Part shown: positions 34,742-35,262 of the stretch, piece by piece
Numbering within the stretch: position 1 is the first letter of the stretch
How the letters are laid out: each line of letters begins with the position of its first letter
Source of the DNA: Escherichia coli
Lineage (GTDB): Bacteria; Pseudomonadota; Gammaproteobacteria; Enterobacterales; Enterobacteriaceae
Strand: one strand, 5' to 3'
Length of the DNA: 64,000 bases
Assembly (NCBI RefSeq): GCF_036507355.1
Contig: NZ_AP027877.1
Position numbers and translations under genes: made by a program
The notes under the pieces: generated by a model
What the model was told of the DNA's origin: nothing
What the model saw: the letters and a program-made list of their open reading frames with translations, nothing else
The model's database searches: none

Positions 34742-35118
34742 GAAGCTGACCAGACAGTCGCCGCTTCGTCGTCGTCCTCTTCGGGGGAGACGGGCGGAGG
34801 GGAGGAAAGTCCGGGCTCCATAGGGCAGGGTGCCAGGTAACGCCTGGGGGGGAAACCCACGACCAGTGCAACAGAGAGCAAACCGCCGATGGCCCGCGCA
34901 AGCGGGATCAGGTAAGGGTGAAAGGGTGCGGTAAGAGCGCACCGCGCGGCTGGTAACAGTCCGTGGCACGGTAAACTCCACCCGGAGCAAGGCCAAATAG
35001 GGGTTCATAAGGTACGGCCCGTACTGAACCCGGGTAGGCTGCTTGAGCCAGTGAGCGATTGCTGGCCTAGATGAATGACTGTCCACGACAGAACCCGGCT
35101 TATCGGTCAGTTTCACCT
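34742..35118 (+). ncRNA. rnpB: RNase P RNA component (M1 RNA)
   Basis: 377-nt match to M1 RNA as recalled, from GAAGCUGACCAGACAG through GGAAAGUCCGGGCUCCAUAGGGCAGG to CGGUCAGUUUCACCU. Confidence 0.95.
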
Positions 35119-35262
35119 GATTTACGTAAAAACCCGCTTCGGCGGGTTTTTGCTTTTGGAGGGGCAGAAAGATGAATGACTGTCCACGACGCTATACCCA
35201 AAAGAAAGCGGCTTATCGGTCAGTTTCACCTGATGTACGTAATAAACCGTTCCGGCGGGTTT
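35071..35262 (+). repeat. Two tandem ~95-bp direct repeats at and downstream of the rnpB 3' end
   Basis: Copy A (35071..~35160) and copy B (35171..~35262) share gatgaatgactgtccacgac...cggcttatcggtcagtttcacctgat and a hairpin; copy A overlaps the last ~48 nt of rnpB. Confidence 0.8.
35128..35157 (+). terminator. rnpB rho-independent terminator
   Basis: Hairpin acccgc-ttcg-gcgggt followed by ttttgctttt. Confidence 0.7.

Follow-up and report, generated by a model that had tools for sequence, protein, structure and literature searches.

A decayed and probably contracted form of the repeat array downstream of rnpB in Escherichia coli

Introduction

The closest described system is an array of direct repeats located 3′ of rnpB, the gene for the RNase P RNA (M1 RNA), in E. 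coli K-12. Reed et al. in 1982 (Cell 30:627) and Reed & Altman in 1983 (PNAS 80:5359) are said to have reported "three and one-half repeats of 113 bp" distal to the M1 RNA gene, and the K-12 descriptions of the 1980s reportedly placed a terminator in each repeat. Full-text literature searches and identifier look-ups, with the 1982/83 papers outside their reach, found no paper that describes the repeats. A terminator named "rnpB T1" is given in PMC3643576; the name conveys a numbering only, which is consistent with several known terminators.

The locus described here lies in a window of E. coli DNA, the whole 64,000-nt stretch that was analyzed, and it can also be compared with other known systems. 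Multi-unit rnpB arrays resemble rrnB T1-T2 in that several strong hairpin and U-tract terminators follow a highly expressed stable-RNA gene; however, the terminators of the rnpB arrays are embedded in pseudo-copies of the gene 3′ end, and the second one in the window is predicted to be non-functional. At tRNA and tmRNA island sites, too, the 3′ end of a stable-RNA gene is directly repeated just downstream of the gene, with a patchy phylogenetic distribution, whereas the rnpB units have no integrase or cargo, repeat with a period of ~100–125 nt, were not found on mobile elements, and have their identity split in two blocks by a 12-nt insertion. REP/BIME (RIP) elements come into direct contact with the array, one being inserted in the window at 35278-35390, and a REP truncates the extra unit in E. 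albertii and in one metagenome-assembled genome. The rnpB-derived units are themselves not REPs, however, and matches to their middle plus tail are all chromosomal, at 1–8 per genome.

The array in the window matches the 113-bp repeat array 3′ of rnpB that was reportedly described for E. coli K-12 in 1982-83. It occupies the same locus, it has a tail-to-tail period of 113 nt, and its first unit starts inside rnpB. In the K-12 strain MG1655 the heads of the repeats are located at +7, +108, +221, and +334 relative to a fixed rnpB position, giving three extra units of 113 nt. MG1655 units 2 and 3 are 113 nt long and have intact terminators. Unit 4 is the same degenerate unit as the second copy in the window (copy B), and the BIME and remnant found there also come after it. 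The alignment between copy B and MG1655 unit 4 is base for base, and the head, middle, and tail of copy B are common to MG1655 units 2-3. The difference is that K-12 has two more internal units with intact terminators ("3.5 repeats"), which the window strain lacks. The terminator that is said to occur in every K-12 repeat is not found intact in copy B; however, the terminal unit of every E. coli array examined lacks a working terminator by folding. Terminator loss is a property of the terminal unit, and there is therefore no reason to exclude copy B from the K-12 type of array. The feature is already known as a kind, and the window holds a decayed, contracted form of it.

The rnpB gene and its neighbors

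The 377-nt rnpB gene is located at 34742..35118 on the plus strand of the window. The Rfam model of bacterial RNase P class A (RF00010) matches 34742-35118 (+) over its full length (model positions 1-367 of 367) with 318.6 bits and E = 1e-104, and rnpB is annotated here in near-identical genomes. The region shares 99.5% identity with E. coli strain EC1515; garK lies upstream of the gene and the convergent yhaC downstream. The full-length Rfam match, the identity to EC1515, and the garK and yhaC neighbors identify the gene as E. coli rnpB. The mature 3′ end (…CACCU) is at 35118. A promoter-like site at 34706..34734 (+), consisting of GTGACA, a 17 nt spacer, and TATACT, has 10/12 consensus matches, and the predicted −10 hexamer ends 7 nt upstream of the first base of M1 RNA, taken as the start of the Rfam match. 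The only sites returned by a promoter scan were the rnpB promoter and one within yhaC, and inspection of both strands by eye revealed no convincing sigma-70 hexamers with proper spacing inside the repeat unit.

The yhaC open reading frame (35506..36693, minus strand), annotated as a YhaC family protein in relatives, lies outside the repeat and serves as context only. In the window strain it features an in-frame stop at codon 116 (36346-36348) and is probably a pseudogene. RefSeq also lists yhaC as frameshifted or with an internal stop in BL21, O121, and strain 1504D004.

Organization of the repeat units

The duplication is defined by two exact blocks. The 64-kb window contains two exact copies, and no more, of a 21-nt head, AGATGAATGACTGTCCACGAC, located at 35069-35089 and 35170-35190; shuffles of the window have no match to it even at 3 mismatches. 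The same holds for a 26-nt tail, CGGCTTATCGGTCAGTTTCACCTGAT, whose two copies are located at 35096-35121 and 35209-35234; no match is expected by chance, and none was found in the shuffles with 3 mismatches. The heads are 101 nt apart and the tails 113 nt apart because copy B has one 12-nt insertion, GCTATACCCAAA, right after its head, in addition to a change of AGAACCC to AGAAAGC. A gapped alignment of copy A (35069-35169) with copy B (35170-35282) has an identity of 82/101 (81%) with the indel excluded, and the identity is 87% up to the end of the T-tract.

These results bear out an earlier note on this DNA, which had proposed from the letters that the 3′ end of rnpB is duplicated in tandem and had set 70% identity beforehand as the limit below which the proposal would fall. 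Copy A starts inside rnpB, with its head within 34742-35118, and takes in the rnpB terminator, as the note had it. The degenerate hairpin (−4.4 kcal/mol) and divergent middle ascribed to copy B are also present. The coordinates given in the note agree to within 1–2 nt except at the end of copy B, where the homology reaches ~35274 instead of 35262. A third, decayed remnant beyond the REP/BIME element, at 35401-35472, had been overlooked.

Unit 1 (copy A) is 101 nt long and spans 35069..35169 (+), as defined by the exact head and tail repeats and by the alignment. It consists of the head, which comprises J18/2 plus the P2 3′ strand (35069-35089), AGAACCC (35090-35096), the tail up to the mature 3′ end (35097-35118), a trailer (35119-35125), the terminator T1, and a spacer after T1 (35158-35169), all on the plus strand. 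Unit 2 (copy B) spans 35170..35274 (+) by repeat families and alignment. Its head (35170-35190) is identical to that of unit 1 at 21/21 positions and is followed by a unit-specific middle, GCTATACCCAAAAGAAAGC (35191-35209), a tail (35210-35231) that ends in a pseudo 3′ end, CACCT, at 35227-35231, and a degenerate hairpin region without a U tract (35244-35262), again all on the plus strand. The RNaseP_bact_a model has a sub-threshold match of a 3′-fragment to 35119-35231 (18.9 bits). In every extra unit, the head matches rnpB J18/2-P2 exactly, a 19-nt middle stands in place of AGAACCC, and the tail is the same as the P4/P1 3′ strands.

Between unit 2 and the remnant, at 35278..35390 (no strand assigned), lies a BIME-1/RIP type element in which two REPs are joined by an IHF-site-like linker. 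The assignment is based on copy count, sub-threshold Rfam matches, and a consensus. As a query, this region matches at a median of 18 sites in each E. coli genome, and the sub-threshold REP-derived Rfam families are naRNA4 at 35278-35319 (−) with 25.2 bits and ES036/CssrF at 35323-35365 with 32.7 bits (gathering score 37.6). The identification of 35278-35390 as REP also draws in part on the REP consensus, GCCTGATAAGCG...CATCAGGC. The remnant of a further unit at 35401..35472 (+), recognized by repeat families D2 and D3, alignment, and folding, consists of a tail fragment, CATCAGTTTCA, a broken terminator (35411-35440), a spacer, and a degenerate head (35452-35472). Over 30 nt, the broken terminator has 83% identity to T1, and the remnant head has 71% identity. 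Tandem Repeats Finder reported no array at the locus; this is not counter-evidence, since the program had only about two copies to work with, and an indel distinguishes them.

Terminators of the array

T1, at 35126..35157 (+), is by folding the sole intact intrinsic terminator in this region of the window. Its core stem, CCCGC/GCGGG at 35133-35146, closes a UUCG loop and is extended by A5/U5 pairing, after which comes TTTTTGCTTTT. The fold has an energy of −19.4 kcal/mol (z = −4.73) that is equaled by 0/200 shuffles, and UUUUUGCUUUU stands after it. On the minus strand the energy is −13.9 kcal/mol and the hairpin is followed by UUUUUAC, so that T1 may be bidirectional and also stop the convergent yhaC transcript. 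A pattern-based terminator scan missed T1 on the plus strand, probably because the A/U-extended stem absorbs the U run, and folding was used instead.

An intrinsic (Rho-independent) terminator is recognized by a stable G+C-rich hairpin and an adjoining U-rich tract, and copy B shows neither. Its hairpin folds with −4.4 kcal/mol (z = +1.48), with 185/200 shuffles at least as stable, and it runs into UUUCAGAUUG with no U tract; the sequence after the hairpin at 35257-35269 is GGGTTTCAGATTG, where the T1 equivalent is GGGTTTTTGCTTTT. The remnant hairpin is similarly weak (−3.5 kcal/mol, z = +0.56). Judged by these folds, the single credible stop for rnpB transcription in the window is T1, and copy B is predicted to be a relic with a non-functional terminator. 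The suggestion in the earlier note that the repeats provide back-up termination or processing is therefore unsupported in the window. The terminators of K-12 units 2 and 3 are intact, at −18 kcal/mol, and across strains and species internal-unit terminators are strong, at −14 to −25 kcal/mol, while terminal units mostly lack one. Back-up termination is a modest possibility only in strains with intact internal-unit terminators, such as K-12, and even in these strains the array appears dispensable, since it is missing from many natural strains.

Two different hairpins act as the rnpB terminator in Escherichia and Salmonella. One has a UUCG loop, CCCGCTTCGGCGGG, and the other is longer, CCCG(C/T)CAG(C/T)G(T/C)AA(A/G)C(C/T)GGCGGG. 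The longer hairpin is T1 itself in strain C5 and in E. albertii.

Variation in copy number among E. coli strains

The earlier note had also suggested that the copy number may vary by strain, and this is the case. A census with a 41-nt probe, which joins the unit-specific middle to the tail, counted 8279 units in 3671/5426 complete E. coli genomes, with 1-8 extra units per genome (median 2) and none in 32%; all were chromosomal. A second census used only the two unique flanks as the query, and the locus measured 523 to 1030 nt in genomes sampled evenly from the 5425 that matched. Arrays that were read directly contain 0 extra units in the O157-type strain 137 and the B2-type strains EcPF18 and JA0072, 1 in the window strain, EC1515, WP5, C5, YL03, and the O157:H7 strain 7386WT, 2 in strain 203740, BL21, and 1504D004, 3 in MG1655, AR_0151, and D1, and 4 in LFB1 and O121. 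The degenerate unit seen as copy B is also the last unit of the K-12, BL21, O121, and LFB1 arrays.

The differences between arrays carry the marks of exchange between units. O157:H7 strains are exactly one unit apart, at 523 versus 636 nt. The neighboring units 2 and 3 of O121 are identical, and a spacer variant, GGAGGAGCGGAA, is common to O121 units 1-3 and D1 units 1-2, including the spacer after rnpB. The terminator alleles CCCGCTTCGGCGGG and CCCGCCAGCGTAAAC(C/T)GGCGGG are found either as T1 or in an internal unit depending on the strain (C5, BL21, WP5, 1504D004). Taken together, the identical adjacent units, the common spacer variant, the swapped terminator alleles, and the one-unit difference in O157:H7 point to unequal exchange and gene conversion. 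In the zero-unit strains 137, EcPF18, and JA0072, T1 is joined directly to the spacer and degenerate head of the remnant, and GTTTTTGCTTTTGG is common to both partners at the junction. This is the expected product of a recombinational deletion between T1 and the broken terminator of the remnant.

Insertion sequences were observed in the array of some strains. In strain LR-48 an IS1 is located two bases into the unit 2 middle (after …CACGACGC), and the remaining array, yhaC, and part of yhaB are deleted. IS621 (IS110 family) is present in the second REP of the BIME, at the equivalent of ~35360, in two unrelated strains, D1 and GF47. The array of GF47 is also rearranged, with part of the BIME fused to a unit tail.

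Arrays in other Enterobacterales and the conserved insertion

A cross-species scan with a head 20-mer, taking one genome per species, covered at least 120 loci, of which ~33 were Enterobacterales loci with enough downstream sequence. Among the matches listed, extra units or remnants lie right after rnpB in 13-14 of these ~33 loci, and they are absent from ~60% of the Enterobacterales species sampled and from all of ~80 non-Enterobacterales loci. The carriers include Enterobacter sp. Bisph1, Enterobacter sp. Ag1, E. albertii, Citrobacter youngae, Enterobacteriaceae RIT691, Pluralibacter, Cedecea, Pantoea sp. IMH, Erwinia mallotivora, Pectobacterium betavasculorum, Brenneria, one metagenome-assembled genome, and an Escherichia genome with a 118-nt period. 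Additionally, the array of Salmonella Senftenberg comprises six extra units and that of Klebsiella pneumoniae one and a half. The draft genome of Citrobacter youngae CCUG 30791 has its array divided between two contigs, an example of repeats breaking a short-read assembly.

The unit architecture is common to at least 15 species of Enterobacteriaceae, Erwiniaceae, and Pectobacteriaceae. Every extra unit is built of a head, a 19-20-nt middle of the form GCTNT…AAGAA(A/C)GC, and a tail, and the arrays usually end in a half unit that has the head, middle, and tail but no terminator. The trailers and terminators of the extra units resemble the rnpB 3′ flank of their own species, which indicates concerted evolution. 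The 12-nt insertion behaves differently. It was found in the genuine rnpB at 0/119 loci retrieved with the head pattern, where the head runs straight into AGAACCCGGCTTA-type sequence with 1-2 substitutions in a few. Gene conversion from rnpB cannot maintain the 12 unit-specific bases. Across six core Enterobacteriaceae genera these bases have a mean identity of 88%, versus 33% for the spacer and 50% for the trailer of the same units, and the 19-nt middle is identical between E. coli and Salmonella at 19/19 positions. The conserved insertion implies either some constraint or the movement of units between genera.

In Erwinia endophytica the rnpB 3′ end is directly followed by a conserved flank with a long imperfect hairpin (AAAAACAATA…). 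This flank is also present in E. mallotivora, Cedecea, and Enterobacter sp. Bisph1, where it is located behind the terminal half unit. From the position of this flank, the block of terminator, spacer, head, middle, and tail looks to have been inserted or deleted as a whole.

Origin and maintenance of the array

The locus is probably a contracted rnpB 3′ array that expands and contracts by unequal recombination, is homogenized by conversion, and is dispensable, with copy B as a neutral or near-neutral relic. The array consists of pseudo-copies of the last ~50 nt of rnpB together with the terminator and spacer. Units would be gained and lost by unequal homologous recombination or by replication slippage between the 21-nt heads and the tails of at least 26 nt, and gene conversion would hold the heads, tails, and trailers identical to the functional rnpB of the strain. 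The survivors in the window would be the terminal unit of the array, with its terminator decayed, and an older remnant, parted from it by the insertion of the BIME; copy B would neither terminate transcription nor be needed. The array appears dispensable because extra units are missing from 32% of E. coli genomes and IS elements lie inside the array elsewhere. There are two points that sit poorly with a neutral relic. The 12-nt insertion is identical in E. coli and Salmonella, is outside the reach of rnpB gene conversion, and looks like the product of purifying selection. Additionally, the internal units of many species hold strong, sequence-diverse terminators, which could reflect selection or repeated copying of functional T1 alleles.

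The extra unit could be a conserved functional element of the Enterobacterales. As an RNA made by read-through of T1 or as a DNA site, it might influence the biogenesis of RNase P RNA or affect the RNase P protein, for instance by serving as a decoy with the J18/2 and P4/P1 3′ strands. The presence of head, middle, and tail in at least 15 species of 3 families and in 0 of ~80 non-Enterobacterales loci among the matches listed speaks for such an element, as does an insertion that is far better conserved than the spacer and trailer and has a middle that agrees at 19/19 positions between E. coli and Salmonella. Structural evidence does not add to this. An RNAalifold consensus of 12 species suggests a possible head-tail helix with no compensatory change; 0/13 pairs covary and the covariation term is +0.33, although the power of this analysis is low because the helix partners are near-invariant, and the single-sequence minimum-free-energy folds vary between species. 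Since the unit is also missing from ~60% of the sampled Enterobacterales species (among the matches listed) and from 32% of E. coli genomes, and the copy in the window is decayed downstream of the tail, this explanation is given only a small share of the likelihood. A related reading, in which the extra units are an ancient and selectively maintained pseudo-3′-end with a conserved 12-nt insertion, the copy number of which is tuned by unequal recombination, is considered similarly improbable.

It is more doubtful still that the repeats are fail-safe terminators or extra 3′-processing sites that catch T1 read-through and still yield mature M1 RNA. Strong internal terminators (−14 to −25 kcal/mol) are found in K-12, Salmonella, Citrobacter, Enterobacter sp. 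Ag1 and Bisph1, and Pantoea, these hairpins differ in sequence yet are all stable, and copy B retains the surroundings of the mature 3′ end (CACCT/GATGTACG). However, the hairpins of copy B in the window (−4.4 kcal/mol, z = +1.5, no U tract) and of the remnant (−3.5 kcal/mol) do not fit this role, most species have arrays whose final half unit lacks a terminator, extra units are missing altogether from 32% of E. coli genomes, and a back-up terminator has no need for a conserved head, middle, and tail.

The direct repeats could also be attL/attR-type scars of an integrative element that targets the rnpB 3′ end, in the way that islands target tRNA and tmRNA genes. The patchy species distribution and the insertion-like block seen in the comparison with E. 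endophytica are of the kind expected from integration, but no integrase or cargo lies between the units at any locus read, no distal second copy was found within the flanks examined, and phage and plasmid collections gave only mislabeled chromosomal fragments or terminator-only matches, which makes this origin very unlikely. A contig labeled "Salmonella phage S.Kent" was considered as a phage carrier and rejected as host DNA that runs from rnpB to tdcA.

The possibility of small ORFs in the repeats was reportedly noted in papers from the 1980s. That the units encode small basic peptides from the head ATG is the least probable explanation: ORFs of 33-38 codons are present at 35071-35175 and 35172-35273, in E. 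coli the head ATG is preceded at a distance of 9 nt by a GGAGG in the spacer, and the frame is also open in Salmonella and Citrobacter units, but the peptides match no Pfam or NCBIfam family, NC_000913.3 (MG1655) annotates no gene between yhaC and rnpB, neither 113 nor 120 nt is divisible by 3 and the 7-nt difference shifts the frame between variants, the Klebsiella middle has a frame-shifting 1-nt deletion, codon 10 is a stop in Enterobacter sp. Ag1 and Cedecea and the ATG is missing from Pluralibacter, the differences in the middle between genera are mostly non-synonymous, and translation would pass through the terminator hairpin. The protein-coding reading was dropped on the grounds that there is no family match and the frame is not conserved.

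Implications

The duplication as first stated is of little consequence, being a classical K-12 observation, present here as a decayed copy without predicted terminator activity. The variation of the locus has practical weight for the annotation of the rnpB 3′ end, for probe design, and for the use of "rnpB T1", given that the locus is a variable array of 0-8 units with a risk of mis-assembly from short reads. The array is also a clean natural case in which a functional RNA gene and its pseudo-copies evolve in concert. The conservation of the insertion across genera raises a small question about RNase P RNA biogenesis, one that was not found to be addressed in the accessible literature. If the unit is indeed a maintained element, it would act on the maturation of the RNase P RNA, on the RNase P protein, or as an sRNA produced by T1 read-through.
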